A DNA stretch of 64,000 bases, from NCBI GenBank assembly GCA_051294905.1, contig CM119372.1:5582001-5646000 (forward strand). The letters are read 5' to 3'. Shown here piece by piece: positions 3,001 through 64,000 of the stretch. This DNA comes from Botryllus schlosseri (lineage: Eukaryota). The notes beneath the pieces were generated by a model. The model saw only the letters and a list, made by a program, of their open reading frames with translations. It ran no database searches and was not told the origin of the DNA. How positions within the stretch are numbered: position 1 is the first letter of the stretch; every line of letters begins with the position of its first letter. The position numbers and the translations under genes were made by a program.

Positions 3001-6000
3001 GGTTTGAAATCATCAACAATGTCAAGTGTTGCGCCATACCCCGGTATCAAAGTTGGATAGCCTAGCAAACGAAGGTAACATAAATACTTGGATACAATTT
3101 GCTAAAACCGAAGGTGGTTGAAGAATTTTTGGTTGGTACTCAATCAGTCATAGCGTCATACATTCCTGCTCAAGTTCAAGTAGCAGTAGTGACCGAGTGT
3201 TCAAGTAGAAGTAGAGAATCAAGTTCTGAAAATTGCACGAGTATCAAGAAGTGGATTACCCCGAATTGTCGAATTCTTTAGAGTGTAATCGTAAGTGACC
3301 AATGACCATTTCCGAATATAGGTATAGTCAAGGTGAAAGTATATCAGTATTGGTACTCCAGTAGCACTAGAAGCAACATCCTAAATTTCTGCTCCAGCGT
3401 ACGCAGCAGTTTACAAGCAATGGTAAAACTACAAGCGGAAATAAAATTGGAACCCAAGTAAAGCATCAAATTTCTAATCACGTGTACCTAGAGATCTATA
3501 AGGCATGTAAAAACTGCTTTTAGTGCAAGCAGAAATGGAGTTAAAAGAACTCAAGTAATTTGTTTGATCAGAGTAGATTTGGTCTACGTCAGAAGTGGCC
3601 AACCCCTCGCTCGCGAGAAGGTTTTCAGTGTCCCGCGAGTTAATTTTCGAATTTGGTTGTAATATCAATAAATAAAATAGGCAGGTAACTTATTGTGAGC
3701 TTGCAAGATCAACCAAAAATATGATAAGCCTGACCGCGAACTTTATGATGTTGATGACGAAAATATACGTTCCGACTCATTGGCGGAGGCAAGGGCCATC
3801 CACATTTTCGTATATGAACATGAAGTAGAATATTTCGTCGCAGATTTATTTGACTTGATATTTTTCTTGACACTTCGTGCGATTCATTGTCGCTCGATTT
3901 CTAGCTTTTCTAGTATTGTTTCCCTCTCATGAAAATTAAATATGCGCCCATTCTACAAAAGTGAGCCTAACTATATTCGCAATTATGTGAGAACGTATTG
4001 TCCTACATGCGACTTCGCGCCTGTACTCGCAGAAAGATAGTCGTTGATGAAACCTTTGCGCAAAATGATAGACAGATGTTCACTGTAATCTTTGTTATTG
4101 ATATATATACAAGCCCCGATTATTCATGTCCTGGTCAATGGAGCCCAGCTGTATACAGAGGCGACCCACAATATATGCAACATTATTATTGCCCGAATTC
4201 ATTCATTAACATTGATAAAATTTCGCTCTTGGCCCGGCTAGGACTTGTACACAGTGTTTTCATGACATGTTCGTTATCGAATTTGATGCATAGTAATATT
4301 AATATATGTCCTGTTTATACCATTACCTAATCCTGTTCGCTCCTATCGGACGATTAGAAAAAGGACATCAACGTTAAAGTGGCCCATGCAGTTGTTTGTA
4401 AATCTCATGTGGCCCTTTGGCCGAAAAGTTCGGCCACTCCTGATCTAGGTGTTGCATTATCATAGCATGTAATTGTAAATGACTGTTTTCAAATAGGCTA
4501 CATGTTATCAAAGTAGTGTTGTTACCCAAGTAGAAGTAGAGGTGACATCATAAATATCTTTCGATTTACAAGACATGATAAGACTACTCCAAGTGGAAAT
4601 AGAAAATGAACTTGAAAATTAGTCGAGTAAGTCGTTCAAAGAAGTAGATCTGGTCTTGGTGTCGCTTTCTTTTAGCATATATAATTGTTTCCAACCAGGA
4701 TGCTGTGTATTCTGGCATTACGATGCTATGATGCATTATTTCTTGTAATCCATGTACGCCATATACCAAACTAATCCGCAAATCAATGAAAAGGTAATCA
4801 CTTCTCCGCGGCCTGCTGCAAAGTCCATTCATCTGCAACACAAGTGGACTACGAGGAAGCAGTGAATTCTTTGTTACGTCATGCCCCGGAAAAAGTCAAA
4901 AAGCCGCAATTGAAGGTATCAATCAGTTAAGCTCATATGAAACCGGGGAGGGGTCAAAGTAGTCGGTGTCCGTACCCAAGTAGAAGTAATGTCACAGATT
5001 CCCTCCCAAGCATAAGTAGCAATTTACAAGGTAAAGTCGTGTCCGCTGAATTCGGAGACCGTGTAACCGCTTTATTCGGCCAAAAATGCTTGTACAGGAA
5101 AGAAGTAAAATTGCATTTAAAATATTCCGGCCGTTTAATGCGGACAACACAGATTCTGTGGTTAATTCGGCCAAAGTGGGCGGAACCACACTGAATAAAG
5201 TAGAGTCGACTGTATATCAAAACTGTACTGAAAGTATGAGTAGCGATTTACCGGGTATGTCATACCTATTTCAAGTGGAAGTTAACAAGTACTCTGTAGT
5301 TTGATGGAAGTTGATTTGGGCGTAATATCGCATTCATTAAATATGAAACGCATTGGCGACAAACTCGTCTGATGTCGCAGGCCGGACTCAAAAGCTTCAG
5401 ATCGCTCGCGGGCCCCACCAATGGAGTGATTCCAAACTATTACCTGAAAATCCGTGTCATGGTTTTTCATTTGAAACTTGATTATCAAGCCTTTCAACAC
5501 AGTAGTGTAATAGATGAATTATATTTCGGATCATATGGGTTCTATTCTAGTTGCACCTATATTAGCAAACAACGAAATTGTCAATAATATGGTGATTAAG
5601 CGGCAGAATACAGTTGAAAATCAATGGAACAGTAGATCTTCTAATATGATGTCGGCAAGCCGGTATTTTTCTATGCTACCGATGTTTTACTCGAACATGG
5701 CGGCAAACCTGGGTATGTGTTGAGGTAAACAAAGTATTTAATTGTATATACGGACGTTGGAATTTTCTTCATCGTCTTAGAAAGCGATTTAGGTTTCCCT
5801 CGAGGCCGGGTACCATTTGAGTCTTTTGTGATGCACTAGTGCGACCACAGATATTGTAATTATATTTTTGTGAAACTATTGTATTCACCATGTAACTTGC
5901 ATGTATCAGTTCCGTATTGGCGTTTTTGCTTCTGTTTTGGGGAATTTTTCCATAGAACTCGGAACACAATAAGCAATTTTCTTCGTACTCGACATTTGCA

Positions 6001-10897: not shown

Positions 10898-12874
10898 GAG
10901 CAGGCGACCAGAACGAACAATTTAATTACACGGGTCTCAATCGAAAGCTACTTTCGCACTGACTCCGAAAAATGAAATTAAAATCTGGTCCGGGCACTGT
11001 AACGCCCCGGAAACCGCCCTCGAAGGGTCAAAGTCGGTATTGTTTCTATCAATGGTAACGTCGGTAGACAATGACCGTTCAATGTCTCGTACTGATCGTG
11101 ACATCATTGGGCGCTCTGGCGAAGTCGCTTGCCGTGTTCCCCGTGATTCTCAGACTCAGAGTATTGCGCGTCGTATCAATCGCTGTAGCGCGAATAAGTC
11201 GTAATGTGAATAGTTTGTGTATTTTATGCGTCGTCGCGCATTCAAAAATTTGTATAAATATAAATTATAGCACAAAAGCCTGAACATATACCATATCGTA
11301 GAATTTGCTATCAACACGTATTTCTTGGTACGCAACAGGCCGATCTACAAAACAGTTTGTTCCATTGGGCACAGCGGTTCATGAATTTCATTGTAATATA
11401 TATTCAGCACGACTTTGCCAAGGCGCTCAATGATGTCACAATCAGTTCTAGACATTTGATTTGTCATTGTCTACTGCCGCTACCTTTGTTAGGAACAATG
11501 CCGATTTCGGATTTTAAAGGCAATTTTCGGGGGGTTTTAGTGCCCGGACAAGATTTTAATTTATATTTTCTGAATCAGTGCGAAAGTAGCTTTATATTGA
11601 GACTAGGGTTGGGACTTCGGGATCAAATTTGAAATCCCGGGATCGGGATTTTCCCGGGATTCTCGCTTCTCAATCCCGGGATTTCCCGGGATTGGAAAAG
11701 TATTAAAATACACATACAAGCTACACAATAGGGCTGTTCAAAAATAACCTTTTTTCCTGAATCTTGCCGGGTACGTTTTAAAATCGTTAAGTTGCCTTAA
11801 AAAACGACGCACACCAAATTGGAATTCATTCCAACCAATATTCGCGGGTTTCGTAGAGTTTGAAAATTTTGAATTTGCCCAAAAACGCCAAAAATTTATT
11901 TTTCAAATTTTTCTGCCAACCCCATGCAATTGTTGGCCTGTCTTCAAAAACTATGCAAAACAAATTTGACTCAATTACAAGCCGTAGAAGCGGAGTTGTT
12001 TCAGTTTTTATTCGATAATTCTGGTATTATCCTTGATCTGTGTATAACCCAAGAATTATCATCGAAAGAGGTTTATAGTTAGCGATACAGCGCCTTCTTG
12101 CGTGTATAATAACTCTATATTCGTTCATCAGTTCAATATCAATGACCACTCCATCAGTATTTCAGACAGCTAGCAAAATGCAATGACGTTATCATGCTTC
12201 ATACTTCGAAAAAGCAACTTGACTTGAATTGTGACTTGACTCGTGACTTGACTTGGCTTAACTTGACTCGACTTGACTCGAGTCACCTCCAAAAATCGAG
12301 TTGACTTGACTCAAGTCACCTTTGAAAATCGATTGACTTGACTTGACTCGAGTCGAAATGTGAAATGACGCGTGACTCGAAGGTATTGACTTGATCTCAA
12401 CACCGTTAGACACCATATACTAGACGACAATTGCATCTTATCAACGTAAAAACTCTTGCGCCAAAAGATCGCAGCCATCGGACATATGACACGTGAGAGC
12501 GATTCGGGTGTTTGGAGTGGTTTTACGTTGTCAAATCCGAAATAAGAAATTTCCAAGTAAATATTGGCGAAACTTGAAATTTCAAAATGCTGAAGCTGTG
12601 ACGCAGGCTGCAGAAAATGTTCTCGCGGGCCGCATGTTTGAGACCACTGTTTTAGACAATCAGCCGAGTTTGTGACACTGCATTATTACCAAAATAAGAG
12701 ATATGGCGCTACGTAATCCTTGGTAGATGCTGTTTACAAATCCCGGGATTTCATCGGGATTGATCCCGGGATCGGGATTGCTTCAAATCCCGGGATCCCG
12801 GGATCGGGATTTCCCGGGGTCCCAACGCTAATTGAGACCTGTTTTATTAAATTTTGCGCTCTGTTCGCCAGCTA
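10898..12874. mobile_element. MITE with ~100-bp TIRs, right TIR split by a hAT insertion
   Basis: 10898-11000 is the reverse complement of 11540-11603 joined to 12839-12874. Flanked by TA on both sides. Confidence 0.7.
11604..12830. mobile_element. hAT-like non-autonomous element with CCCGGGAT subterminal repeats
   Basis: TIR TAGGGTTGGGAC...GTCCCAACGCTA, 8-bp TSD ATTGAGAC. Contains fragments of other MITEs, including a GAGTCAAGTC-family piece at about 12060-12403. Confidence 0.85.
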
Positions 12875-13396
12875 TAAGATTACCATTATTTGACTGCGTT
12901 TAATCAACCCATGCCCGTTTTTGCGTGTTTGAGGTGCCACTGACTGTTATTTATCTGTTCAGATGCGTTGTCTCAGCAAGTAGCCCTTCCTACAGAGAGT
13001 CGTCTAGGTTCATTCTGCTGGGAATTTCCTACTGGAAATGGTGAGTATCTGGTATATTTAATTGATTAGCGCTGAGTTTCCCAATATAGTGGCAACTGAT
13101 AAAGTTGGGCAGAACTGGGAAGAAAGCTCTGTGTGCACTGAGTTTATACAAGATATTATATATCGTAGGTTGAACTAGTTGTCGTCTCTATAAATTGTTT
13201 ACTATCATCTTCCTGTTTAGGTGCTTGTTGCAGTATTCCTACGACTGTTCCGGAAAAGGACTACGAGATTGAAGTCAGATCTGTGTTGCGCCATGCACCA
13301 TCCAAAAACAGAAATCAGCAATACGAGGTAGATGCAATATTGATTGTCTAAATATATTGCGCAGAGGGGATAATGGTTATATTGCGTAACCATACT

Positions 13397-21967: not shown

Positions 21968-24900
21968 ATATTTCCAAGAGTACGACAGTTGATTTGTATA
22001 CTACTGATCCGTTGGAAACGTTTACTGCTTTATCGACACCCGCAGGTATTATTATATGTATTCCTTAAATTAGTCACGATGAAAAATATTAGGTATACAT
22101 ATATTATATATGTATAGCAGCTTCTTGTGTGTGTGCGTGTGTAAGCACGTCGCACTACCACCAACAATATGTGACAAATGGGACAACATCGAAGACAAAT
22201 ATGAAATATATCTTGATTGAACGTCATTGTGTTCAAACCGTCGGTCAGTGTTGGGATCAAGTCACTACCTCCGAGTCACAAGTCATCTCGAGTCATTGTA
22301 TATTTTGACTCGAGTCAAGTCAATCGATTTTGGAAAGTGACTCGAGTCGAGTCAAGTCACTCGATTTTTGGAGGTGACTCTAGTCAAGTCGAGTCAAGTC
22401 AAGACGAGTCAAGAGTCAAGTTGTATTTTCGAAACACGAGGCATGATTAAGTCATTGCATTTTGCTAGCTGTTTGATATTCAGATCGGTTCGCTATTCAT
22501 TATAAATCGAGGGATGAATATAGACTTATAGAGGTTAAATTAAGTTGCAAATAGGCGTTGTGCATCTCACGAATGCGTAGTACCCTATCCGCCAAAATAG
22601 AGAATAGAATACGAAACCGCAGGCAGGGGAAACGAATTGATATGATACATTATCCCACTACATATCCACGGTATACAATTTAAGCTGCGCCAATGCTTGA
22701 CTACAGTAATATAAACTTGTAAAGTATATTTAATATTGATTTAGATCACACAAGTGATCACCTAACCCTAATGGCCACTGACCAGTCTATAGAACAGAGA
22801 TCGATACCTTGTTATATTACTTTACTACTGCGAAAACGGACGCTCTAAGAGGTCAATGTGTTTGTGATAGACCAATGGAGGTTCAGTAAAACGCAAAATC
22901 ATTGAATGAATGTGATTTGTCACTCTCACAAGCCACACCAGCCTATCGAAAACAATCCGACTATTTGTAAAGAATACAGCGATTGTTATCGACACCGATT
23001 ACTTGATGATTTGAAATTGACTCGTAAAATTTTGCTCCGAGACACGAGTCAATCCGCATTTCTAAAACGCCGAGTCAAGCCAAGTCAAGTTATTTTTGCA
23101 AAGTGACTCGAGTCAAGTCAAGTCATACGAAAAAGGTGACTCGAGTCTGACTCGAGTCATCCCAACACTGCTATATATAAGTATCAAGTTATTATATACA
23201 TCGGATATGCTATGACTTCCCTTTTTGCAGTAGATGGTTGGAAATTGCTTCATTGCTACAAATTCAAATGCCAATAAAAGGCCTGTTTTCGTGATCTGAC
23301 ATACCGAACCACTGCAGTATACAGTGCGCAATTGCGAGACTATAGTGCTTGATATGTTGCAACCTAGGGTAATATATTAGAGCCACCTGGTCAATTGCCT
23401 GTAAGGTTGCGTTATAGCCAAGATCACCCAGTTCCTGATGTTATCCAGCTCAAACGTTTTTCAACTCGCGGACCGGTGGACTTTCAAAAAATTGAAATCA
23501 AACCCAAATGCCAAGTATGCAACCGTTTTTGCATGTATATGGTTCTAGAGAATGACATTTGGAGGGTTTTAATCGTTATTAGTTATATTCATAAAGGCAT
23601 CGATGCGATTTTACGGTAGTGAGTCTGCTGAGTCGAGGTAAAATTGCTTTGACAGATAAACGTGCTACCGCAGAGAGTCGTTTAAAGTCTTTCGCGCCGA
23701 AGGTCGTGGATTTAACCGACCATGCTAACTCGAAAAATATTCTTCTCTTCGGCAATATCGAGAGAAGAAGCATTTAGGCACCTTATCGAGCTAATTTGCT
23801 CATTTCCCACTACCACCAGACGTTGGGTACTCTGGCTACTACGAAAACAATGCGCCGCACGAAAACAGCTGACTACAGCTATAGCCTACCTGGCCATCGA
23901 CAAAATAGGGGTCGAAATAGCACTTTGTCTTCCCAGTCCCCTTAAAACCTTGGTCTTGGGCCCCCAGACCCCACAGTTGGATGGACGTCTTAATCAGTAC
24001 TTGTGAGCACGTTCATTCTACTCAGTGTAGGCAGAGGAGTTTGTGTAGCCTAAACACGCGAGGCGCGAAAATTTTCTATAATTCATGACTGAATCGGTCA
24101 ATAATATTGGTAATTGCATATATTTTGCTATAAATTTTGATTCTCTCAGAATTATCAGATTTTCCGGTAAATCAGAGTGAGGTGTCGTCTTGGAGAATTT
24201 ATGGCACGTAATTTATAATTAAGCGTATTTTGACGGGCCTATTGCAATAATTAATTCGTTCCATGCCTATTTCTATAAATCATGCGTATTTATCGGAGTA
24301 AGGGTCCTCAAATAATCAAAACATGTCGTGTCACGAAATCGGGCAAAGCGCGGCAGTTACGGTCCTGTACAAAATGAATGAATAGAAAACGAATGATCGT
24401 GCAAACTGCGTGGTTTAGCGAGTCAGCTCATGCTTATCGCTCGCATGACGTCAAAGGACACTGCTTGAACTTCAAGTCGAATCGAACAATTTTCCAGACC
24501 TATAATGTCACCTGGCAGACCGGCAGGAAAGTCGTCACGGACCGGCACTGGTCCGCGGACTGGCGGTTGAGAACCACTGATCTACCTTCATCAAAGCTTG
24601 ATGAATGAGGGATCGTTCTATTGCCACTGCTATAAATTGGAATTTTTTTAAAACTTTTGTGCTAAAGGTCAAACTGCATGAAAAGCTGTAGATACTGGTG
24701 TTCATCGAAAGCTATTAATAGCTTGGCCTCGTTATAAACGAGAAAGTCAAGAAAACGACATCTTATGTAGGCTACCTATGCTAAATACATTTTATACAAA
24801 ATAAACATATACGAATGTCGGATTACATGCGTAGCCTTGTAAGATGACCGAAGAATATTAGCAATAGTGTATTCTCGTTTAGCTCAATGTAGGAATCAGC

Positions 24901-26000
24901 ACCTTCTAAGATTGATTTCATGACGTCAAAATTGAACGCAATCGACTCTCCTGCAGACGCAATCGATAAGTGCCAATCATGTGAGACGCATAAACGAACT
25001 AGCGATTATATACCTGTTTCCGACATGAGTTGTCGTGTGCCAGCGGTGTAACGGTCATATATTTTATAGATGCCGACGAAACACTCGGAACTTCAGAAGC
25101 AACAAATATAGGTATGATCACATCCAAATATCACCCATTCTATCTCAAATGTGCATAGCATACTTTAGGTACAATAGTAGCGTGTTGCAATGTGCAATTG
25201 ATAGAAGATACGAAGTTTGTGTCATGCAAAATCAAGTTGTAACCTATTGAGAAATGTTATGCGACCCCAACTTTGGTCGCAGGATTGATTGGAGGGAAGA
25301 TGGTACATTTTCGTCTGCACGGTCGAGGTACTCCGACGATGAAGATGCGAATCAGCGATAAACCATTGTCACAGCTCCACGCTATACCGATGTGTGCTCA
25401 GTTGCCCGCCCCGTATAGAATTCACATAACAAAACCATAATCACCCTCATTAGAATGGGCTTCAGAAGAAGATGAAGAGACGTATAATTTATTGCGATAA
25501 AGTGACAGATCCCGTTCCTTTCAGGAGCAGCACCCATCTTCGAAACAAATAGTTATATTTGCACAGGATATATTCTCGGATAATTATCGTCAAATTACAA
25601 TAGAAAGATCTCGCAATTTGTAAATTGCGCTATTAGTTCTACGATGAAGTTGGAGCTGATACCACACATCTATCACGTAACAATACCATGTGTATGAACG
25701 CGAGGCGATCTGACGAAAGTTTTACGTCATAAAGTGGAATGAGGAGATCTGAATCACCTATCTGTAGGACCAAATGCTTTTATTTTATCATTTCAACTTG
25801 CTCATGAACATATTTATGCTGTATTCTGTGTACCGTAACGGAGTTATGATGCAGGAACACGATGTCAGTATGCTCCCCACACAAAAGATCAAAGCAGTAT
25901 CATCCCTGAATCGATATAATTGCGATAGAACAACCAGCATACCCTTTTCTATGGTAATCACAGACCGTGACGCTCCAGTTCCTTTTCATGTTTTGTTTTT

Positions 26001-26047
<47 letters not shown>

Positions 26048-27934
26048 AGGTCATTTGCTCCACGGCTTTAATTTAATTAATTTCATTTCATCAGGCCTTT
26101 GTAATGTTTCGCACGAATTCCATGCGCTCATACTTTGGGCTCGGCCCTTCACTCCGGGCTTTGGAAACACTGCTACGGCAGTTAAGTCAGCGATGAGGCG
26201 ACCAGAGAAACCTCTGAAACAAAGAAACTTGGTAGAGCCGAGACTCGAACCAACAACTATTCGAGTCGTGGTGATGTCGCTCTGCAGACTGCGCTACTCG
26301 CTTCTCCGAACAGTCCCTTATGAGAGATAACCGACCCCAATAGTTTTACAATACTAATAATAATATATTCTAATTTTATTTTCAGTTGTTATAATAATTC
26401 CGGTCATAATGGTGGCGCTACTGGTGGCATTGGTGGTTTTCTTATATTTCCGGTAATGTAGAGATTTGCTGCCGCTATATATGTAATGATGTGTATGACG
26501 AGACTTTTATTTTACAGACGCCGCTCACTCAGTGAAGAGGTAACAGGAAGTGCGACCGAAAAGTAAAAACAAATTCTTGAGTTCTGGTTTCAGTATAGAT
26601 GATCATAGTCTTTCCCAGATGTGGCCGTAGCAGTTACCATTATTACTAACAAAATAATTAAAAATAAATTTAGTGGAATGTTACTACTCTATAATTGCTT
26701 AGTTCATCCACATTCGGTATGCTTGATCGGACTTCTTTACATAAATATAGTGATTTAGCGCTGTCTGTCACTGAAATGATAGCTAATTGAAAATAGCAAC
26801 GATATCGAGTACATGAGTTATGGAATGTGAGCCATTCGTACGTATCAATTCAAATATCTTTCAACTACAGTTATACCCACAGTTTGCCCACTGCCCATGG
26901 GTACCCTATACCAGGAAGGAACGCACTAATATGTTTCCTTAAAATGTCAGATTCCACATACGTATCTAGATAGAGACTCTACACTACAGTTTACACATGA
27001 CAATTGAAGAACGACAACATTAGGGATTTGGAGATAGTGCCGTGGGCATGAAACATTCCATATACTTTACTTTGCAGGAACATCGTGCTCTATGACACTG
27101 TTGCACTGGAATCTACAACAGGTCAATGCAATGATAGCTATAGTCTGCCGCGTAAATCCGAACATCCCGTCGCGCCATATGAGTAACTATATACCAGACC
27201 AGGACAAATTGGAAACGAAAATCTTTGTTTAAATCTTAACAGATTCATTGACGATGCGATCGCGAAGTCTGGAGAATATCACACTTTGAAATTGGACACA
27301 GTTCCCATACCGTCTGACGGGGACGGATTATATAACAAGTAATCCATGTTCCGTTTCTCCTCTAGAATTGAATATTTAGGAAAATATTATAATAACGACG
27401 TAATGTTACCTGCATATTTGGAATACATTTGTTTTTGTGAACGAAGGTTAAACGAAGTAACTGGAAAACCATGGACCGCAAACACAAACGAAAATACAGC
27501 TAATAAAGACGACCCATATGCTGAGTAATTGAAGATGTTTTTATGAAGGGTAACCACAATGTTCGCAAGTACGGAATGCTTACGTATTTCAGGATTAAAG
27601 AGCCGACTGTCGCATCCCGAGAAGACAACAAGGATTCTACTGCCGATGATGACGATGACTGCACACGGTTAGCGATTGAAAAAATTCGATAGTTACTCAA
27701 CTTATAACGGAAGTAGCCTACACATTTTAGGTCTGAGGAGAAATCCAATGTAACTGGGGATCCTGTAGAATCGGAAACCGATGGACGATCGAATGATTAC
27801 TTCGAGTAACCTGACACTTCTCTTTACACGTGAACTCAAATAAGTCCTTTTGCTTTACATTCAGAATCAACCTGCCTAATACGGAGGATTTGTACGCGCG
27901 ACCAAACAAGCCGCAGAAGTCGACTAGTCAATAA
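21968..27934 (+). CDS. Receptor copy A (5'-partial, spliced): Ser/Thr-rich stalk, single TM helix and tyrosine-motif cytoplasmic tail of an IgSF-type receptor
   Basis: AG/GT-bounded exons keep one frame: 21968-22045 (DISKSTTVDLYTTDPLETFTALSTPA), 25070-25111 (DADETLGTSEATNI), 26386-26452 (TM VVIIIPVIMVALLVALVVFLYFR), 26518-26562 (RRSLSEEVTGSATEK), 27078-27182 (NIVLYDTVALESTTGQCNDSYSLPRKSEHPVAPYE), 27243-27338 (FIDDAIAKSGEYHTLKLDTVPIPSDGDGLYNK), 27447-27524 (LNEVTGKPWTANTNENTANKDDPYAE), 27593-27667 (IKEPTVASREDNKDSTADDDDDCTR), 27731-27805 (SEEKSNVTGDPVESETDGRSNDYFE), 27865-27934 (INLPNTEDLYARPNKPQKSTSQ*). Stalk, TM and first tail exons are paralogous to copy B. The Ig assignment comes from that paralogy. 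Confidence 0.85.
22246..23170 (+). mobile_element. hAT-like MITE, GAGTCAAGTC family
   Basis: TIR CAGTGTTGGGAT...ATCCCAACACTG with CTCGAGTCAAGT subterminal repeats. No TSD is visible in this copy. Confidence 0.85.
26004..26041. repeat. (CA)19 microsatellite
   Basis: Perfect CA run in the intron before the TM exon of copy A. Confidence 0.95.
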
Positions 27935-29294
27935 CGAGTCACCCGAACTTGTCCGAACAGAGGAAGTCAGTTGACAATTGTGAACTGGAATATTTATGAA
28001 GCGCGTATACATCAAGATTTATTTGAGTTTATTTGATAGGAATGAGGGAACTATACGACAGTCGTTTTCAGATAGATTAAATTGCAATCTCTAGATAGAT
28101 TTTGGTTCGTTTGAGGGCGGACTTTAATATACCCTTCGCTATGAGCGCGAACCTGTTAATATTAATTTGAAAGACTACTTTTTTGTAAGGATGCAACTGT
28201 GAACGTGTACAATACTTAAGGATCAACGTACAGTAGTTATCAAAAGCGCAATATTACCACATTGTCATTGTGCCGTTCCACAATATTATGGTGTCACAAT
28301 GACTTCATCCGAAATCCGGATTGTAACATTTCAATTAATTTAATTAATCAATTAACTTCCCTGAATACATTTTATACTGTAGAAATAGAAGTGTATACAT
28401 ATATGTGTATATTTAGTAAGGTTGACATATGTTCCATTCTTGAACTAGCTTTTTGAAATTTGCCAGAATCCGGATTTATTTTTTCGAAATGACACCATTT
28501 TTTATCGTCTGGAAAAGTCCTTTTCTACGACGCAAGATTGATCTCAGTTTATGTAAAGAGTTCCGGGTGCGAATCCGGACGGAGTCGGCTCGAAAATTCC
28601 TCCCCAAGTGTTGGAGGTTTATCTAGGGTCCTACTCGCCAGCTGATCGGCGTAAGTGGTGTCTTAACATGGCTAGAACTGGGCCGTGATACAAGTCGGTA
28701 AAATACGGAATCATAATCGAGAATATCGACATGGTGTAAAATTACCAATGTAGTCGAAACACCATGAATATCAAACAACAACATTTAAATTTACTTTTTT
28801 ACCACCGTGAAATAACGAGTAAATTGAAATTCGAGGAACTTCGATCGCGGATGTAGAGATCACGGAAATTTCTTTCAACCTACCTATGGGTTCTCAGGTT
28901 AGAATCTAACAATGTCCGTTTGCAAACAAGAACTTCTGATTCATCGACAATTGGACATCTTGGTTTTCGGTCAACATAAGGGCAGTGCTTTACGACCAAG
29001 GTTTTCTCGCTGTCGAACTTATTTTCCCCTTACTTAGTCAATTTGATCAGCAGTTGCATTTGCAGTGCCTTCTCGGTGTCCCGTGTTGGCCTAAACTTCA
29101 TATGTATTGGTGCGTCGTGGCGCGGTAATAGCTGACACCGAAATGCTCAATTCTATAAATCGTTGCTTTCTAAATTTGAAAGAAGTTGCATAAATTTTCA
29201 AAGAGATACTATATAATTTATGTTCATTCACGATATAATTTCGGGCCACCTTCGGGCTCTGCCCCTCTAATTGGGGGTTTGGAGAGCTGCAGTT

Positions 29295-32231
29295 CAGTGT
29301 TGGGATCAAGTCACTACCTTCGCGTCACGAGTCATTTCGAGTCATCGCACATTTTGACTCAAGTCAAGTCAAGTCAAGTCAATCGATTTTCGAAGGTGAC
29401 TCGAGTCAAGACAAGTCACTCGATTTTTGGAGGTGACTCGAGTCAAGTCGAGTCAAGTCAAGTCAAGTCACGAGTCAAGTCACAATTCAAGTCAAGTTGC
29501 CTTTTCGAAGTATGAGGCATGATTACATCATTGCATTTTGCTAGCTGTCTGAAATACAGACTGCGTGGTCATTGATTCTGAACCGATGAACGAATATGGA
29601 GTTGAATATACAAGCAAGAAGACGATATATCGCTCTCATATATACATAGAAATGCTAAACCACGGAAGTAATTACATAGCCTCAATTTAGTTTCCAGCCA
29701 ATATAGAGACTATAGAGAAACGAATTCATAAGATGCAATACATTACCAATTTACGAATTGATCAGTGGCGGCTCGTGACAATATCGGGTGGTGGGGCAAG
29801 GGCTGCAAGCGACTTTTTATCAAGATGACGTCACAATCGCGTTTTCCAACGTAAACAAGTAACTTAATGATGGTACGGTAACATGAATTTCCCGGCAACA
29901 GTGATTTTAACGTATATGTGCCACGAGACTCGAGAGGTCCGCCGGTGAGCTGTGACTTGAAGTATGGGAACTGCGTAAACGGCGTACGGAAAAAAGATTC
30001 AACACGATTCATGTTCGCACTAGGCCTGACTAATTATCTGCAGAAATGGAAATGACTATAACTCGGGAGATAGCGTAAGTCTAATTGGAAAGGTCAACGA
30101 GTTCGGACAGATACGCAATTGTTATCTCATAGATTGGGCCTGTCATATTGAATCCAAAACATCATTCTGAAGAACTAAGAATAGCAGCCTCGGAAATTCG
30201 GTCTCGGTACAGCATAGAAGATTTTGGCCTTGAAACTGGAGACTGTAACACGACACATACGGCTTTATTACTGTCTATAGGTCTGCTGCGAAATCGCCTT
30301 TGGAATATATATATTACCGAATAAATACGTGGATGAAAGCCTTAAACTTAGTACACTGTTACATGACATCATCGAGAAGTGTCATCATGGCCCTTTTCGG
30401 TATGGCGCACTGTCAAAATTAATGCGAACAGACCAACACCGAATTTTGCGTAAAATTTACTGAGGAATAGGCTGATCAAGTGATCAGCTGTTAGCCGCCA
30501 TCGAAAACTAAATAGCTATCGCGCTTGAGGGGGTTGTAAGCAAATGGCTTGACGGCCACAATTTCACGGTGAAATTGACATTGGAGGATATAATATCAAA
30601 GTAAATATTTGAATGGAATCTGAGAATGATATCATCATCTCAGTTAACGTTACCGCAGATACAACGGCTTTTGCGTGATATCCGCAATGCGTTGAAGGCT
30701 AAAGTGTCAGATCAGATCGGAGCGCATCTCTACCATGCTCGACCTTGATAACGAAATTACTGCCCTAATCATTGAGTGTCAACCTTGAGACTTGGCATAG
30801 CGTTCGATATAAAAATCAAGACATACTGTTCAAAAGCTTATGACGGATCTGGGTAAGGAGCATCGTTAAAATCAATAGAGACCAATACCGGCTTTGCGTA
30901 TAATCTGTTAGCGATAAATGAGAGTCAGCTCTCACTCGAATTAGGAAACGAAATTACCACTAACACAGTTCAGTGACAAACTTTACACTTGGTACAGCGT
31001 TCGATACTAACGTTAAGACTTACCGTGCCAAATGTCATAACCGATCTCAGTATTGAACATCGTCAAAATCAATGGATTGGATACCAATACCAGCTTTTGA
31101 GTAAAATCTGTTTGCGATACATGAAGGATCAGCACACACTCAACTTCGGAAACGGAATTACTACCCTAAACTTTAAGTAAAAACCCTGAAACTTGGGGCA
31201 GTGTTAAATACCACCATCACGACATGACATACCAAGTTTCAAGAGTTTTCATGGTGTGAAACACCATCAAAATCGACCTATACCACCAAAGGTCGACTAA
31301 ACGCATATGACGGTAACCGAGTTCAGCTATAGATACGATTGTTACATCACACCTTAAGGGCACAGAGCTAATTTGCCCCGGTTGCTCGGTCATTTTATGA
31401 ATAGGAGAGAGTAAATTACCGTTTCTTTATTGTGCGCGGCTTTGAGAGAATAGACAGTGAAAGCTTGTTATGAGCGCTACCGGGGCATGCCCCGGCTAGG
31501 CATTCGCAAAGCAAAAACACAGAAGAGAATTCGATTTTCGTAGAGACTTCGCTATATATGGGCATTTACAAGCGAAAGGACAAGAAGAATACGATTTTCG
31601 CTGTGGTTTCGGTATATATAGATTGGTGTGCGTCTATAAATGGTAAAGAATTGTTATTGAAGAGAATTTTAGGTGGGGCAATGCCCCAGTTGCCCTATAG
31701 GACGAGCCGCCACTGGAATTGATATGATACTATTCGAGTCTGCGCCAATGGTTGATGGCTATATTAACTATATTCGAATTCAATTTCAACGAAACAAGAG
31801 GCTTAGCTAAGGTATAAGAACAGAGAACAGAATTATACATTTTGCTATAACTACTATACTAGTTTACGAGAGCGTAAGCTGTATGCTTTGATCACTTCAT
31901 TTGTGGTCAATTTATTTGTGAGAGAACAATGAAGTTTCAGTAAAACGCACGATCATTGAATGAATGGTCGCTTTGACAGGTTACACCAGCGTTTCGCGAA
32001 CAATCCGACCACGTGCAAGATAGAGTGATTTTATTGACATCGATTGCTTGATGACTTGAAATTGACTCGTGAATTTAGCTCCGAGTCACGAGTCAATCCG
32101 CTTTTCTTGTACGCCGAGTCAAGTCAAGTCAAGTCATTTAAGCAAAGTGACTCGAGTAAAGTCAAGTCATACGAAAAAGGTGACTCGAGTCAGACTCGAG
32201 TCAAGTCATGACTCGAGTCATCCCAACACTG
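29295..32231 (+). mobile_element. hAT-like MITE, GAGTCAAGTC family, carrying a nested insertion
   Basis: Same TIRs; TSD CTGCAGTT. Confidence 0.9.
29763..31715. mobile_element. hAT-like element nested in 29295-32231
   Basis: TIR CAGTGGCGGCTCGT...ACGAGCCGCCACTG, TSD GAATTGAT. Internal degenerate ~200-bp tandem repeats at about 30640-31290. Confidence 0.9.
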
Positions 32232-33214
32232 CTGCAGTTACGGATCTGGGTATGCTATAAAGATTATTGTCTTGGTCGCTGGTTTCCGAGCAGAGTGCGG
32301 CTTGGCGAAATGGCCTTGTTGTTGAGCCAAGCTTGCAGCTCTTCCGAAATATGACGTCCCTTGATCAAGTGTATGTTCTCGTGTTTTTGTCATAGAACCG
32401 ACTTAAATTATACTCCTTAATCACGGCGACCTGCTCGGAACTAACTACTAAAAAGACGGGTTGCCCCTGACTGCCCCTCCGAATCTTCTTTGAATTTCAA
32501 CTTAAGGCTTTCTTTTTCGACATCCTTTATGGGTAATGATGACTCATAGGAATAACGGGCACTGATCGACTTGTTCCACGAATTAGGGATTTGAAAACGA
32601 ATCACGTAGCAATTTGAAACACAGACCGTGAATTGCGTAATGTCACAATGGCAACAAAAAATGGTTTGGTGACTTCTTGTGACTTTAATTGTAACGGCAG
32701 AATTTGCTACATTTACTTTATTTTGAATCTGGATTACGCACGTGAGGTACGTATAGGCTGCGTAATGGCGGCATGTTAATGAACATGCTTGATAGTAAAC
32801 GAATTTGCGGTAGGCGTAAGTTATTAATACATCCTATGGTTTAATCCAGGCAGCAACATTAAAAAATAGGTTTAATATTTTGAATAGCAAGCAGCCTTTC
32901 GCGGGCCACACAGAATAGCTGCGAGGGCCGCATTTGGCCCGCGGGCCGCCCTTTGCCCAGGCCTGCTCTACGCAGTTGTATGAAACATGATTTACTACAA
33001 ATAAGGTATTCATTCAGGGAGCCTGATGTAACTGAAGACATCTCCTACGTAATACATTGAATGAGATAATCCAACTTACTCAGTGGATCCCAAAATTTTT
33101 GAGACACCCTTGCTTCGTGCGATAGTGAAAATTTTCATGACCCCTCCTCGTAATATAAATATAAATAAAAAGAGCAACTGCAGATTGTTTCCAATACAAA
33201 AGCATAGTTTGCTA

Positions 33215-35304: not shown

Positions 35305-35880
35305 GTTTGCTAGCATGGAATGTTATGACTGTGGAGTGTGGGGTGTGGAGGTACTTCTCAAATATGAAACTAGGACTAAACACAGAGCAATATGGATTAG
35401 CTGGAGTTAAATCGCGCCAAGCGCTAAAAATTAATTAATTAATTAATTTATCATGTGCAACAGTAGCACGTAGCATATAGACATTTTAGCGATTTTGGTG
35501 TCTAATCTTTTCGATTACTCCACTTGAAGTTAGCACAAACTAAATTTAAGACCAATGTCGCGGGCCACACGCGATTCAATCTTAGCACTTCATCAGGGGA
35601 TAAAATTTTTTTCTCTACGTGTCGCAGGTGTTCGGCAAGAGAAAAATTTATTTAATTACCTTTGGGCTACCATTAAATGCATTTCTCAATGGTGGTATTG
35701 TACAAAATGTGTCCTAATTGACCGTACTCGGAGCATCTATACTTCGACGTTATAAGTCACTTCAATTTCAATCCCTTTTTCTCGGATTCAGAAGGCATAT
35801 TATGCATGTCAAATGACAGAGCTTATAAGAAAACATGTGTTATTTGCCCATAACATTGGTCTTTTCGTCGCACTCTTCAC

Positions 35881-37168
35881 CAGAGGTGGTCAAAGTAGTC
35901 AAGAAAGCTACTCAAGTAGAAGTAGAAGTAGTGACGAAAAATCTACTCAAGTACGAGTAGAAGTACTTCTTCCATGACCAACCTAAACTACTTGAAGTAG
36001 AAGTAGAAATGACTGACTTTAATGGTACTCAAGTAAGTAAGTAGTTGTGAAAACGATCCTAATTCGTTCACATGGATTATAAAAAGGTGCAAATTGAGCT
36101 ATGCCAAAAGGTGACGAGCTTGATTCATATTGATGCAGACCAGCAGGTATCCAATTTTCGATAGCATAAGCATTCGTCCACATCATGGGATGAAAATGAT
36201 AGTATTGATATGGAAATCCGATACTAATCCTCTGTTTACACAAACAGCACGTTTAAGAAAATATCATGGTATTGCGCACTCCCCCATATTATAAGGCCTG
36301 TAGTTTAGACGAAGAGCAATACGGAGATGTTGTGTTGGATGCGGTGTAAACACTTTGTGTGATTAGTAAACGTTAATAAAAAAATATGGTGGACTGTAAA
36401 ATGCTATATTGTGTAGCTCTATTTCTGGAAATTGAAGGCATTACTACACTTCTTTTTATACTTCAAGATGTACGTTATCCAGACAAAAGAACTGATATTA
36501 ATTAGAAATCAAAATATATGGTACTGGGAATTGAAAGTGAAATCTAAATCTAAAAATGGAAAATGTATTTAATGTCTTTAGTCCAGAAAGTTTCGAAGGT
36601 TGGTATGCTAAAACAGCTCTAAAACTAAAAAAAGTCAGAGTCCACCTTTCCAGATTAGGACACGCCATGTACAGCTAGATTACGGTATGATAAGTAAATG
36701 CTAGATTGCGAAACATAAGTTTCAAACGGTATGATAAGCCATATATATACTGTGATTAAATATTTGATTTGGCGAAGGGCGACAATGCGGTGCGAACGGA
36801 ACCACGCCAACCCGCTACCTAAATTATATTCACCGATACTTTCGTGAAATCATACTGGATACCCTGCAGTCACTGCGCGCTAAGCGCGACGAAAATTCTG
36901 GGCTTAACTCAACTTTTATGAAAATTAAATGTCGATACTCCCCGAAAACAGACCCGAAATTCCTCAGCCTATCTTACTAATTGGAGAATTCAACTACTTC
37001 TACTTGACAAACTGAAAATAGCGAAAAGTAAGTAAGTAGATAACAAAATATTACGAAGTAGAAGTATTAGCAGCGAAAATCAGATCTACTTGAGTAAGTA
37101 CCAGAAGTAGAGGAAAACTATTTGAGTACTTCGAAAAAGTAGAAGTACTTCGTTACTGACCACCTCTG
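35881..37168 (+). mobile_element. hAT-like element with AGTAGAAGT subterminal repeats, copy 1
   Basis: TIR CAGAGGTGGTCA...TGACCACCTCTG, TSD CTCTTCAC. Confidence 0.9.
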
Positions 37169-38105
37169 CTCTTCACTGATCCTTGACAGACAGACCACAA
37201 ATACATTAGCTGAAAGCTACACTCATTCACGAGTTATTCTTAATTCAGAGAGATATTCTGGTCGGTGCAAAGTTCGGTATCCGTCAAAATGTAACATCGT
37301 TGAATAGATAGATAGTAGACACCATTATGGCATTAAAAATCGTAATATATTTATAATTATTTTCGTTGTTGGAATTTGGAAATTTCACCACAAATTTAAC
37401 TCATTCGAGTTCAAGAAATATCATATTTCCCGGGCGGCTTCGCGACCCTCTCAGATGCTTTCACGCCCCTCAGTTTGAGAAACACTGAATGCCAAACTAG
37501 TTGGAAAACGTTACCGTGATATGTGTGGTTTAATCTCAGCAAGTCTGACACCAGCTATTTCTCCCTACCTGTAACACGCCCACCTATAATACCCGCGCAC
37601 CTGGGTAATTTCCGGAGGAACCCAATGTCCGGCAAATATTTTGTATAATACACATAACGCATATTTTTCATGTTCAAGATATATTGCCGTAACAAACATT
37701 CTGAGCGTGTAACTTATTTGCCCCCGTGTACAACATAGAAGCGCGCTGAGAATGCACACAATATAGACTAACCTTATTTGAATCAGATTCAAAGGATACC
37801 AACGTATAGGCTATGCACAAACATAACATCAATAAATGAATGCGCGTTAGCAATTTAGACAATGGACAAACATACGTAATTAAGCGACACAGAGAAAAAG
37901 GAGGCCAAATAAACGCCCGATTCTTCGAAAAGTGGTAATGCGGAGTCTAGAACCGACGATACAGTGCCAATATCCTCGTGTGCTCTGCTTTCGTATTTAT
38001 TCTTTGTATTCCGTGATCTGCCAGACTCATGTCTTTGCCCCCTTCTTATCTAACGGTGTTTCGAGATCTATGGTCAATGGTTATACTATACACAGTACAC
38101 ACTAC

Positions 38106-39354
38106 CAGAAGTGGTCAAAGTAGACTCAAAGACAAAGACTACTCAAGTAGAAGTAGAAGTAGCGACGAAACAAAATCTACTCAAGTACGAGTATAAGTAC
38201 TTCTTTCCTAGGCAACCTAAAACTACTTGAAGTAGAAGTAGAATTGACTTACTTTAAATCTACTCAAGTATGTAAGTAGTTGTGTAAACGATCGTAATTC
38301 GTTCCCATGGACTGTCAAAAGCTGCAAATGGTGTTATGCGGAAGGGGTAGAGAGCATGATTCAAATTGATGCATCCCAGGAGGTGTCGAATTTTGACAGA
38401 ATAAGCTGTCGTCCACATCATGGGACGTAAATGATATAATTGATATATAAATGCGATACTAATCCTTTGTTTACTCGAACACCCCGTTTTAGAAAATATC
38501 ATGGCATGGCGCCCTCCCCCATATTATAAGGCCCCTAGTTCAGTCGAAGAGCAATACGGAGAAGATGTGTCGGGTACGGCTTCAACACTTTGCGCGATTA
38601 GTAGACGTTAATTAAAGATATGGCAGATCGTAAAGATGCCATGGTGTATAGCTTTATTTTCGGAAAATATAAGGCATTACTACACTTGCTTTTACACTTT
38701 AACATGTATGTTCTCCAGAGAAAAGAACTGAAACTATAATTAGAACTCAACGTATAATACCCGTAATGGAAAGAAAAATACAAATACTACTTCTAAAAGC
38801 GGAAAATATATTTCATGTCTTTTGTCCGGAAAGTTTTAACGGTGGTATTCTAAAACAGGTCAAAGTAAAAGTCCAATTTTCCAGATTAGGACACGTCATG
38901 GACTACTAGGTATAATAGGTAATTGCTCTATTACGAAACGGTAGTTTCAAACGTTATGAAATATTTGATATAGGCGACAATGCGGTGTGAAAGGAACCAC
39001 GCAACCCGGTATCTAAATTATATTCAGCGATACTTTCGTTAAACATTTTTGTTACTCCATATCTACTGTGCACGAAGCGCAACGAAAATTCTGGGTATTA
39101 CATGAATTTAATGAAAATTAAATGTTGGTACTACGTGAACACAGCCCCGAAATTCCTTGGGCTATCTTTCTAATTGGGAGATCAAACTAATTCTACTTGA
39201 CAAACTCAAAATAGCGAAAAGTAAGTAAGTAGTTCACAAAATATTACGAAGTAGAAGTAGCGACAAAAAGATCTACTTGAGCAATTACCGGAAGTAGTGG
39301 AAACTACTTGAGTACTTTGAAAAAGTAGAAGTACTTCGTTACTGACCACTTCTG
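38106..39354 (+). mobile_element. hAT-like element with AGTAGAAGT repeats, copy 2
   Basis: TIR CAGAAGTGGTCA...TGACCACTTCTG, colinear with 35881-37168. No clean TSD. Confidence 0.85.
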
Positions 39355-39865
39355 CAACAACATATATTGCTTATTATGATTCCTGATATGCCAACTTGTA
39401 GCATGACCCAACTTCGTCCTAGGCTCATATTGCTAATTTCAACCCTGCATTTGGGTGAGGTGACATACAAGATACCCAGCGACGACTCAGGCCACATTAT
39501 GTCACAATGCTGAGGCACATGCTGACTTTTTAAACATCATCAAATGTATCAACTGTAGCAATCAGATGCTACATTAATCCCATAAAATCGATATCTTCCG
39601 TCGCTTTGTCAACAATTTCGACGAGGACTTGCAAGAGGAAATATAAGCTCGCGCTTTGACGGTCAAGGCCAGAAAGGACAATGTATTCGTAATCTGACTA
39701 TTGCTACCTTGAGATTGAGCAGAGTGTGAACTGGTTTGTATACGTGCTACCGATATAACCCTATAAACAAGTTATACAGTAGACAGCACCCAGACCGCAC
39801 GGATTTGATACAATAAACATATAAAATCAAGATGGATCCCGCCTGCTATATCGTTTACATTAGAC

Positions 39866-51985: not shown

Positions 51986-52264
51986 ATGATCTTTCGTTTT
52001 CCGGTAACGATGACGATGGATGTAAAATTATCCCGCTGGGCACTAGAAGCGATGCTGAATGTGTATCACTATCAGCATATGATAAGGATTTAACGTGGTT
52101 GCACGACGGAAGGCCGGTGCCTAATCTTCCGTCAGTAGGCAAGCAACCTGTTCAACAAATGGGTGGTCGATTGCACTTTTTCACCTCCGCGACTGTTCAC
52201 GATTCTGGTGATTACTACTGCAGTTCTGGTCGAGACGAAAAACTGTTGCAAGTCTACATTGTAA
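51986..52264 (+). CDS. Immunoglobulin-domain exon Ig1
   Basis: cag|...|gtaagt, 279 nt, phase 1/1. The translation has the canonical Ig Cys (AECVS), Trp (LTWLHDG) and DSGDYYC (DxGxYxC) motif. Confidence 0.9.
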
Positions 52265-55200
52265 GTAAGTAAATAGAACAAACTCCCTTTTCTAGTTTAT
52301 AGAAATTTGGAATGACACACACCTTGGGCATTATAAACAATCAAGGTTATTTTTGATGACTTCCGGCTTTCGAACAATTTAGGAACATTTTCACTATTTC
52401 GACTGTCACCTACAGATGTGACCGAGAATACGGCAGAGGAATTGTGTAATACTGATCCATTGGAAACGTCTACTGGTGCCACCACTGCTATTTCGACATC
52501 CGCAGGTATTATTGTTTGAATTCATTATATAGGTCACGATGACAAATATCAGGCGTAGGCTACATATAGATGTACACGATGTGTGTGCGAATTGGGTAGT
52601 ATGGATGAGGAGGGGATGGGGGTCGGAGGTTGGTGCCGTGGTAGTGAACTGCCGCCAAAGTGTACACGAAAGGGACCATATTGAATGTCAATTTTACTCA
52701 AACTCTTGAATATATATATGTTGGGTTGTTAAAATACCGAATGTGTCATGAGTTGTCATTTCTGCAGTAGTTGATTGGACATTGTTCTAATTAGAGGGGG
52801 CAGGTTTGGATACCAACGACATGACGCTTTTCGCTATGTGGCTTACCGATAACCCGTGGTATATTCCTCATGTACAGTACACGCGCGAGACTAGTGCTAG
52901 ACATAGCGATGCGATCCTTGAAAGTTCCTGGTTCGTGTGAACACTTGTTTATCTACAGGGCAGTTTTTTAGTGTGACTTGACTTGATTCGAGTCACATTG
53001 CAAAAATGACTTGACTTGTCTTGACTCGACGCTTCCGAAATGTGGATTGAATTGTGACTCGGAGCAAAAATTACGAGTCAATTTCAAATCATCAAGTAAC
53101 GGCGTCGATAAAAATGGCTGATTTGCATATATTCGGATTGTTCGCGATACGCTGGTGTGACGTGTGATATGAGCAATCACTCAATGATTGTGCGTATTAC
53201 TGAGCCTCCATTTTTCTATCACAAATAAATTGACCGCAAACGAAGTGATCCGAGCTTACAGCTTACATGTCGTAAACTAGTAGTAAAGTAATCTTATGGC
53301 AAAGTATCCATCTCTGTTCTATAGATTGTAGGCGATATCCACTTGAACCAAACCTCTTGAATGATTTAAACCGTATTTTAATACTGTATGTAAGTTTATA
53401 CTCGTCGACCATCGGCGCAAGCTTAAATTGTATCTCAAATGGGTGCAGGTGGCTAGTGCATTGCATCATATCGATTCGTTTCAACTTTCTGAGGTTTCGT
53501 ATTCTATTCTCTATTTTGGCTGATAATTATAGACTGCGGCTATACAGTTACTTTTAGGTAGTTTAGCAATTCTACGTATGCGTGTACGATAACACGCCTT
53601 TTTGCATGTTTATTTAACTGTATATTCGTCTCTTCATTCAAAATAAATGGCAACTTTCTATAACAGCTATTAAAACGCAATGACGTAATATATGCCCCGT
53701 ACTGTGACAAATCAACTTGACTTGAATTGACTCGACTTGACTCGAGTCACTTTCAAAAATCGATTGACTTGACTTGTCAAAATGTGCAATGACTCGAGAT
53801 GACTCTTGACTCGAAGGTAGTGACTCGATCCCAACACTGCTAAAGGGTACTATGGGAAAACGAATTTGAACACGAGCATTTGACTTCACATGACGTCTCA
53901 TTGCTAATTTGAAACACCCTGCATACTTTGTTATGGCATTTCTAACGGTACCAGACGATAAGCATTATGAGTAATTAGGTATATTTGCGATGAATTCAAT
54001 CGAGTTGTTCAATAGCGCAGGCCTTCAAACAATTCAGGAACTTTGTTAACTTTGCTCACAGATATAGCCGAAAAAACGACGTTGGGTTTGCATACTTCTG
54101 ATCCCTTGGAAGCGTCTACCAGTTCCGCAACTGCTATTGCAACACCCGCAGGTATTATTGTATGTATTCAATAAATTAGTCACGATGATGAAGATGATAT
54201 AAGCTTAAATATATGGTTATAGATGGTTTCTATACTTGTATGTTTACGTGTGTGTGTTTGCGTGTGCTGTGTCGGTATACCACACAATATGCGAAATGGG
54301 ACATTATTGAAGACAAATATGAAATATTCCTTGATTGAACGCCATTTTTATTCTTACCGTCGACTATATATAAGTATAAGGATGTTATAAATGTCGATGA
54401 TGATATACCGAATTTAGTTCATTTATGATGTTCGTATTTAGGTATTCTATTTTTTTGAAATAATTCCTGACCTGCCAAAACGCTATAGTTAGCGGAACCG
54501 GCGAGAGGAAAATACAAAATTAAAGCGAATAAATAAATATAATAATAAGTTCAGTTGCGAGGTAGCTCTGAAAACTCAATAATTCCAGAGGAGGAAAATT
54601 GAAATGAATTACCAAAAACAAGTTAAAAAATCGCTATAAACAATGAAAATTTAATAATTTAACTCGAAATAAATGAACAGAATTTTCAAATTTCGGAGGG
54701 AAATTTTCACAATATTTGCTTCAACAGAAAAAACAAACAGGTCGTGCGCGTGGATAAACTCAAGTCAAAAACTTCTCGCTACATCAGCGGGCAGCATCAT
54801 GGACTCATTATATAGACTAGTGAAACGATATTAAAAACTGCTGAAAGGAAATGGCTAATTGTGAGGTCCAACAAAGTCAAGTACGTCATGATATCATCCA
54901 TTGAATTTCACTGTAATTCAACCTATAACAATCCAACTAATAACAGTCGCCGTGTATTTTCAAGTAGGATTGGTTATGTAATTGCGGATTATATGCTCTA
55001 GGACAGTGATCCTCAACCTTTCTGTCTTCGCGGATCACTTTGGACTGTCATGGACCCCAACACACAATTTTAGTTCAAATCTAGCTCTATTATCGTGCAA
55101 CCGTCATCTGTCTTGTGTAATTATTATTTTAAAGCGAATTCTGTAGCTGCGTGGCCGTGTCTTGAGAATTTTTGCCGTCGATTTGATACGAACGAATGCC

Positions 55201-63630: not shown

Positions 63631-64000
63631 GTAAAAACGAATTCTTGAGTTCTGGTTTCAGTATAATTGATAATAGTCATTCTTAGATGAGGCCGAAGCA
63701 ATCACCACTATTACAGAAAAAAATTAAAATGAAATTTGGCGGAATGATACCATTATATAATTGCTTAGTTCATGGACATCTGTTATGATCGATCGGACTT
63801 CTTCATTGTTAAATATAGTGGTTTAGCATTTTCTGTCACAGAAATGATAGATTTAATTGAGCATAGCAACGCTATCGACTACAAGTTGTGGAATGTTAGC
63901 CATTCGCACATATAAATTCAAATATCTTTCAACGACAGACCCACAGTGTCGCCATTGTCCTTGGGTAGCATATAACAACAAGGAACGCACGGATTTGTCT

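Follow-up and report, generated by a model that had tools for sequence, protein, structure and literature searches.

Eight tyrosines over same-phase tail exons: a predicted Botryllus schlosseri receptor whose intron-split motifs probably reflect exon assembly

Here, we examined a transcribed gene encoding a predicted single-pass membrane receptor in a window of 64,000 nucleotides, the whole stretch of Botryllus schlosseri DNA that was analysed. Its main RNA joins all six tail exons, which likely gives a docking tail with eight tyrosines, and we consider it probable, with some reserve, that the tyrosine motifs interrupted by introns are a footprint of assembly from same-phase exons rather than a working switch operated by exon skipping.

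Gene structure and transcript evidence

The membrane exon, six tail exons and last exon carry AG/GT ends throughout and, once joined, form a single open frame whose cytoplasmic tail comprises 181 residues and eight tyrosines. All seven introns between the membrane exon and the last coding exon are in phase 2 (p ~0.001 for six later introns matching the phase of the first, equal phase use assumed), and six of them measure 59-108 nt. The tail exons (45, 105, 96, 78, 75 and 75 nt) each have a length divisible by three and are all phase 2/2; this element of the preliminary description was confirmed from the sequence, and the predicted junctions match the RNA joints. The features of the gene are as follows.

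21968-22045, + strand: 78-nt candidate stalk exon (phase 1/1), rich in Ser/Thr, predicted from its splice sites and its similarity to the stalk exons of the downstream paralogue; putative member of the transcript
25070-25111, + strand: 42-nt stalk exon (phase 1/1), spliced to the membrane exon; a loose end of X2 contig 10 is identical to 25080-25109
26386-26452, + strand: 67-nt exon (phase 1/2) predicted to encode the transmembrane segment, with a hydrophobic stretch free of charged residues
26518-26562, + strand: tail exon 1, 45 nt, phase 2/2, without tyrosine; joints in X1 and X2
26563-27077, + strand: 515-nt intron; read-through gives an immediate in-frame stop and a 16-residue tail
27078-27182, + strand: tail exon 2, 105 nt, encoding YSLP, the Tyr of YE|FI and VLYDTV, which fits both the ITIM consensus and YDxV; joints in X1, X2 and X6
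27243-27338, + strand: tail exon 3, 96 nt, with the end of YEFI, YHTL (ITAM-like spacing 9) and the Tyr of YNK|L; joints in X1, X2 and X6
27447-27524, + strand: tail exon 4, 78 nt, with the end of YNKL and the Tyr of YAE|I; sequence and RNA
27593-27667, + strand: tail exon 5, 75 nt, with the end of YAEI; acidic, without tyrosine; sequence and RNA
27668-27730, + strand: intron of 63 nt whose donor is gttagc; probably retained in part in X1, from depth arithmetic
27731-27805, + strand: tail exon 6, 75 nt, with the Tyr of YFE|I; strong variation among copies
27865-27934, + strand: last coding exon, with the end of YFEI, YARP and the stop codon; sequence and RNA

Four of 24 listed public runs were compared with 26100-28560 at 85% likeness; three indexed runs contain about a quarter of the sampled words, and no listed holder is on record as RNA. 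The gene was covered by three of the four compared runs (X1, X2 and X6), and X10 showed no coverage. X1 and X2 consist of contigs (X1 is guessed to be RNA, and the kind of X2 is unstated) and X6 of RNA reads (about 6% of the run). Every one of the seven introns was seen as a joint, each in at least two of the three covering runs, and all 12 junction reads listed for X6 were canonical. An unbranched X2 contig (contig 10, 679 letters, depth 22) links the stalk exon at 25070-25111 to the membrane exon and tail exons 1-3 and reaches exon 4, with no differences from the window among the pieces listed. Transcript depth in X1 and X2 extends to 28560, the 3' limit of the compared stretch. The best reading of the main RNA in the runs examined is constitutive splicing that joins all six tail exons, in a gene that sits within a cluster of small Ig-type receptors.

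Nine joints were recorded, of which seven are the predicted introns. One of the others, 27669-27865, was considered as a skip of exon 6 and rejected: its record shows GT after exon 5, as at the start of exon 6, and 114-41 = 73 unaligned letters, i.e., 75 minus 2, consistent with a diverged exon 6. The second, 26567-27084, which has non-canonical AA..AT ends, was rejected as a distinct joint and read as the normal junction in a copy that differs at the exon start and carries eight differences in exon 2. A single back-joint in the run data (27903 to 27681, depth 2) was set aside, and a gap in X2 at 27511-27925 was excluded as evidence because the records are filtered.

The preliminary description had proposed that exon skipping could switch signalling. 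No exon-skip joint was found among the nine recorded joints of the three covering runs, a result of low power (12 junction reads plus contigs, tissues unrecorded), and deeper RNA could still reveal regulated forms. At 10% skipping, 12 junction reads would include no skip read 28% of the time; a read joint was counted from three reads up, contigs lose rare forms, and 16 of the 76 pieces are listed. With 12 junction reads, the RNA test of our main explanation is weak, which counts against it.

Sequence variation was also apparent in the runs. Three of the four read variants listed for tail exon 3 are synonymous. Among the variants listed for tail exon 6 in X6 reads, six in number, none falls in the Tyr codon, and in an X1 contig this exon drops below 85% likeness with its length and tyrosine kept where seen.

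Tyrosine motifs and their chance expectation

At six of the eight tail tyrosines the +3 position is occupied by I, L or V (YDTV, YEFI, YHTL, YNKL, YAEI and YFEI), and at the other two by P (YSLP and YARP). Introns cut four of the six YxxI/L/V motifs, YEFI in the Y+1 codon and YNKL, YAEI and YFEI in the Y+2 codon. The four split motifs first noted (YE|FI, YNK|L, YAE|I and YFE|I) are thus present as described, apart from the layout of YE|FI, where the following exon supplies the +3 residue as its second complete codon. At least six YxxI/L/V motifs appeared in 7 of 100,000 residue shuffles of the tail (p 0.00007), an enrichment suggesting that the motifs were likely selected. When six junctions were placed randomly, at least four of the six motifs were split at p 0.00022 with the cut in Y+1 or Y+2, and at p 0.0035 with the cut anywhere in the motif. 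These chance models assume independent exons, which is untrue if the exons arose by copying, and they show a pattern rather than its cause.

The motifs predict docking, and the tail is likely a multi-tyrosine docking tail, whose tyrosines would be phosphorylated by Src/Syk-type kinases and then bound by SH2 proteins. VLYDTV fits the ITIM consensus I/L/V/S-x-Y-x-x-I/L/V, but such a match is present in 22% of shuffled tails, and its ITIM label is weak because, given six core motifs, one with I/L/V/S at -2 is expected with a probability of 0.79. The only ITAM-spaced pair is YEFI-9-YHTL, and a pair spaced 6-12 occurs in 1.4% of shuffles; a search of the tail for YxxL/I-(6-8)-YxxL/I gave no match, with one pair at spacing 9. 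The tail holds six core-1 motifs (YxxI/L/V) and no core-2 motif.

The same motifs might instead build an adaptor or sorting scaffold that is neither an inhibitory nor an activating immunoreceptor, in which YDxV would recruit Nck, YxxP would recruit Crk/Abl-type SH2 domains and YxxI/L would act in endocytosis. Nck binds nephrin-type YDxV, and the only ITIM match doubles as a YDxV, the motif type described for nephrin; the two YxxP sites, the ITIM match in 22% of shuffles and the pair spacing of 9, outside 6-8, also point in this direction. A 6-12-spaced pair in only 1.4% of shuffles argues against it, as do the acidic residues before several tyrosines, a feature of kinase substrates, and the likeness of this fast-changing gene cluster to immune receptor loci. 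We regard a scaffold role as doubtful; it is compatible with the footprint reading that we prefer.

Donor sites and splicing alternatives

The donor hexamers (gtaaaa, gtaact, gtaatc, gtaatt, gtaacc and gttagc) were correctly reported, with +5G only in gttagc. Five of the seven tail donors lack both -1G and +5G, as compared with none of eight predicted ectodomain donors, the latter being paralogous and not independent. This contrast fits regulated splicing and weighs against our main explanation. The -1A at these donors reflects split codons that encode Glu and Lys. Because six of the seven donors carry an in-frame TAA directly, retention of the intron would end the protein at YE, YNK, YAE or YFE.

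Regulated intron retention might tune the tail. Each phase-2 GTAA donor would end the protein after Y-x or Y-x-x, so that the products would form a nested series: tail-less with intron 26563, ITIM-only with intron 27183, and so on to a nearly complete tail with intron 27806. Near the 3' end of 26563-27077, both X1 and X2 yielded pieces that contain intron: X1 record 1 spans 27010-27182, from the intron into exon 2, without a joint at depth 5.9, and X2 record 11 covers 26844-27013 at depth 2.8. The part at 26598-26763 has zero depth in every run. Bin arithmetic left a residual depth of about 8.7 over intron 27668-27730 in X1 and none in X6, and no piece spanning this intron was present among the 16 of 76 pieces listed. 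Retention has been associated with weak sites flanking short introns in human data (PMC1831480, available part), and a precedent exists in Botryllus FcoR3 and FcoR4, where motifs change through intron retention according to the accessible text of PMC12582321.

Several observations temper this reading, which we judge to be unlikely. An in-frame TAA is automatic for any phase-2 GTAA donor; the motif-cutting introns 27183-27242 and 27339-27446 showed no depth in X1, X2 or X6; and the intron-containing pieces may be either retained introns or unfinished pre-mRNA, with X1 itself only guessed to be RNA. Furthermore, retention of all but the last intron would likely lead to nonsense-mediated decay, which counts against it. 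Retention is nevertheless likelier than skipping as a variant form, because only intron-containing alternative forms were seen and six of the seven donors give an immediate stop. Where splicing does vary, a short intron with a weak donor would more probably be retained than an exon skipped, and the tail would be cut just before the +3 residue.

As for skipping, the earlier claim that any exon skip keeps the frame holds, as all 64 exon combinations reach the same C-terminus, and they yield 20 distinct motif sets. The further claim that any skip changes a motif is true of five of the six exons and fails for 26518-26562, whose skip alters none. Skips could also rebuild motifs as proposed, with three exon ends able to recombine into new YxxI motifs in our computation. 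The example put forward, a skip of 27078-27182, does delete the ITIM match, but it also takes the first Tyr of the only ITAM-spaced pair: 16 of the 64 combinations keep ITIM and pair, 16 the ITIM only and 32 neither, and because the pair without the ITIM occurs in none, the signalling sign would not flip cleanly in this example. By the definition of the FcoR paper, 0 of 64 combinations contain a hemITAM, and a looser D/E-x-x-YxxL/I was kept in 40. Regulated skipping that edits the motif set, from mixed to ITIM-only (skip of 27243-27338) or to single YxxL/I sites with ITIM and pair lost, is in our view the least probable of the readings considered: the 64 in-frame combinations with their 20 motif sets, the weak donors, and the precedents of PECAM-1 tail exons 10-16 (PMC2132561) and Daphnia Dscam (as cited in PMC6851185), as far as the available portions of these sources go, speak for it, but no skip stood among the nine joints (27669-27865 being a diverged exon 6), 0 of 64 combinations carry an ITAM-spaced pair without the ITIM, and short flanking introns favor retention.

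Origin of the tail, gene copies and ectodomain

Y-x-E/K closes exons 3, 4 and 6, and L or I opens exon 4, exon 5 and the last exon; the ends fit the starts, which makes exon ends interchangeable. The shared Y-x-E/K ends suggest copying of one exon type, and the tail may have grown by copying of an exon that ended in Y-x-E/K and started with I/L. Growth by exon duplication, as first suggested, is plausible, although the best of 42 exon-pair tests (p 0.007) was not significant after correction. The best of 21 intron-pair comparisons gave p 0.12, also not significant, and the threefold repetition of VTG in the tail gave p 0.07. That exon copying left no significant sequence trace counts against our main explanation, and so does the lack of an Ig exon for this gene copy in 1-21970.

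A downstream paralogue provides a view of the putative ectodomain.

51986-52264, + strand: 279-nt exon (phase 1/1) for an Ig domain in the paralogous unit downstream; matches Pfam Ig_3 at E 0.0006, which is below cut-off
61155-61421, + strand: second paralogue Ig-domain exon, 267 nt, phase 1/1; Pfam Ig_3 E 0.0002, below cut-off; Atlas matches are Ig families
63458-63630, + strand: two paralogue exons, for the membrane segment at 63458-63524 and for the start of the tail at 63586-63630, with sizes, phases and donors equal to those of the studied gene

The paralogue and the studied gene are identical at 59 of 67 nt in the membrane exon and at 37 of 45 (82%) in the first tail exon; the later tail exons of the paralogue fall outside the window. 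The intron after tail exon 1 (26563-26934 vs 63631-63998) is about 80% identical, near the 82% of the exon. Such near-equal likeness of intron and exon suggests that the copies may stem from recent duplication or conversion. Two Ig-plus-stalk units (51986 and 61155) precede one membrane exon (63458), so that the paralogue may be a two-Ig receptor or a partial duplicate with a common anchor. The 42-nt stalk exon also has a counterpart near 63236-63277, whose acceptor AG seems to be lost.

An Ig fold of the paralogue exons is supported by the Pfam matches below cut-off, the Atlas matches and a confident predicted structure (exon 51986-52264, pLDDT 88), whose best folds were Robo1 Ig5 and NCAM Ig1. 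The studied copy would likewise carry an Ig ectodomain. In 1-21970, no Ig exon of the paralogue type was found for it, and profile, nhmmer and signal-peptide scans gave no leader or Ig exon. X2 contig 10 includes 341 nt upstream of the membrane exon, of which the last 32 were assigned (stalk exon). Weak Pfam CD3 matches (E 0.0014 and 0.088, below cut-off) were discarded, as the fold search did not support them.

Searches for relatives returned little. A protein search with a longer version of the Ig exon matched 0 of 26 candidates and one with the exon 3 frame 0 of 5. A 50% protein library gave 78 matches, one of them close (P0011, 57%) and the others generic Ig repeats, and a profile search retrieved only two relatives, both unnamed single-exon products. 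We describe a receptor family for which protein and profile searches found no annotated close relative, and the open-licence literature contained no publication that we could find on it.

A short repeat at 26150-26300, in the intron before the membrane exon, attracted thousands of RNA reads in X6 and X10, mostly below 95% likeness; it is likely a SINE, some loose ends being tRNA-like, and searches of it gave no tRNA gene and no Rfam match. A repeat family with internal short tandem units (12074-12403, 22245-23159, 29294-29758, 31722-32234, 52965-53842 and 62196-63121) recurs in either orientation within introns of both receptor copies. Two 1.3-kb copies at 35879-37169 and 38104-39355, 78% identical and with inverted ends, likely represent a non-autonomous DNA transposon. 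A different gene is represented by two strongly predicted exons at 12963-13040 and 13221-13327, and a similar sequence lies at 4804-4918; there was no Pfam match, and the frame end of that gene is reminiscent of BEN-type transposon-derived proteins.

Comparison with known receptors

The FcoR genes of Botryllus schlosseri are clustered and, like this predicted group, encode Ig-superfamily receptors of type I that bear several tyrosine motifs (PMC12582321, available text). FcoR proteins are built as Ig-Sushi-Ig-Ig with core-2 [A/D]VYxxV pairs, and core-2 is absent here. Their clusters on chromosomes 5 and 11 lie head-to-head with a fester-family gene, and a chromosome 9 cluster lacks such partners, as described in the same portion of that paper, which also records vascular expression of Syk, SHP, SHIP, Grb2 and Crk homologues in Botryllus. 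No Sushi exon or fester partner was recognised near our gene by inspection short of a profile search; the paralogue shows Ig and stalk exons. In an exact-word search of the FcoR sequence file, 11 of 12 diagnostic words were absent and the twelfth fell in ectodomains, and the tails in two of eight parts of the supplement, inspected by eye, differ from that of this gene. By exact words and this partial inspection, the gene does not match the listed FcoR sequences.

PECAM-1/CD31 and CEACAM1 are Ig-superfamily members, as predicted for this receptor, and likewise have tails distributed over short exons bearing tyrosine motifs. Tail isoforms of both are documented in the accessible parts of PMC2132561 and PMC2110893, whereas no skip was seen here. 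The motif of PECAM-1 exon 14 lies within a single exon, unlike the split motifs of this gene. Dscam is a ten-Ig hypervariable receptor, and its likeness to this family is limited to a generic Ig match. The tail of crustacean Dscam gains or loses ITIM/ITAM-like motifs through optional exons, and some skips shift the frame, unlike the 64 of 64 in-frame combinations found here (PMC6851185, available part).

The likeness of this gene to vertebrate split ITAMs is likely convergent, which is the simpler reading because its introns are in phase 2 and mostly interrupt unpaired motifs. Of the four motifs cut by introns, three have no partner, unlike in vertebrate ITAMs, the pair spacing is 9 as compared with 7 in vertebrate ITAM genes, and the membrane stretch at 26386-26452 lacks an acidic residue, unlike classical ITAM subunits. 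The intron of vertebrate ITAM genes follows the Y+1 codon. As in this gene, the first of the two paired YxxL/I modules contains an intron in CD3, TCR-zeta, FcR-gamma, CD79, DAP12 and the ITAM-type CEACAMs (PMC4536121, PMC2110893), and the first module of the classical vertebrate ITAM is described as always intron-split in the consulted portion of PMC4536121, which also reports that an additional exon created a second ITAM in Xenopus FcR-gamma. That intron is in phase 0 according to the available text of PMC2110893 and PMC4034164, in contrast to the phase-2 intron that likewise lies inside the first module here; PMC4034164 gives an ITAM spacing range of 6-9. It is a distinctly improbable, if far-reaching, proposition that a so far undescribed family of invertebrate-chordate receptors controls its signalling output through the choice of splicing at motif-internal introns, one gene giving tail-less, ITIM-only and ITIM-plus-ITAM-like forms, with YE|FI-9-YHTL as an independent split-ITAM invention or a relic whose intron shifted by one base. 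If retention or skipping is regulated, the products of one gene could range over decoy, inhibitory and mixed forms of the receptor. Should the split motifs be a footprint only, as we favor, they would represent a second, likely independent case of immune-type receptor tyrosine motifs spread across introns. The split-motif design is already known from vertebrate ITAMs; phase 2 and mostly unpaired motifs set this gene apart.
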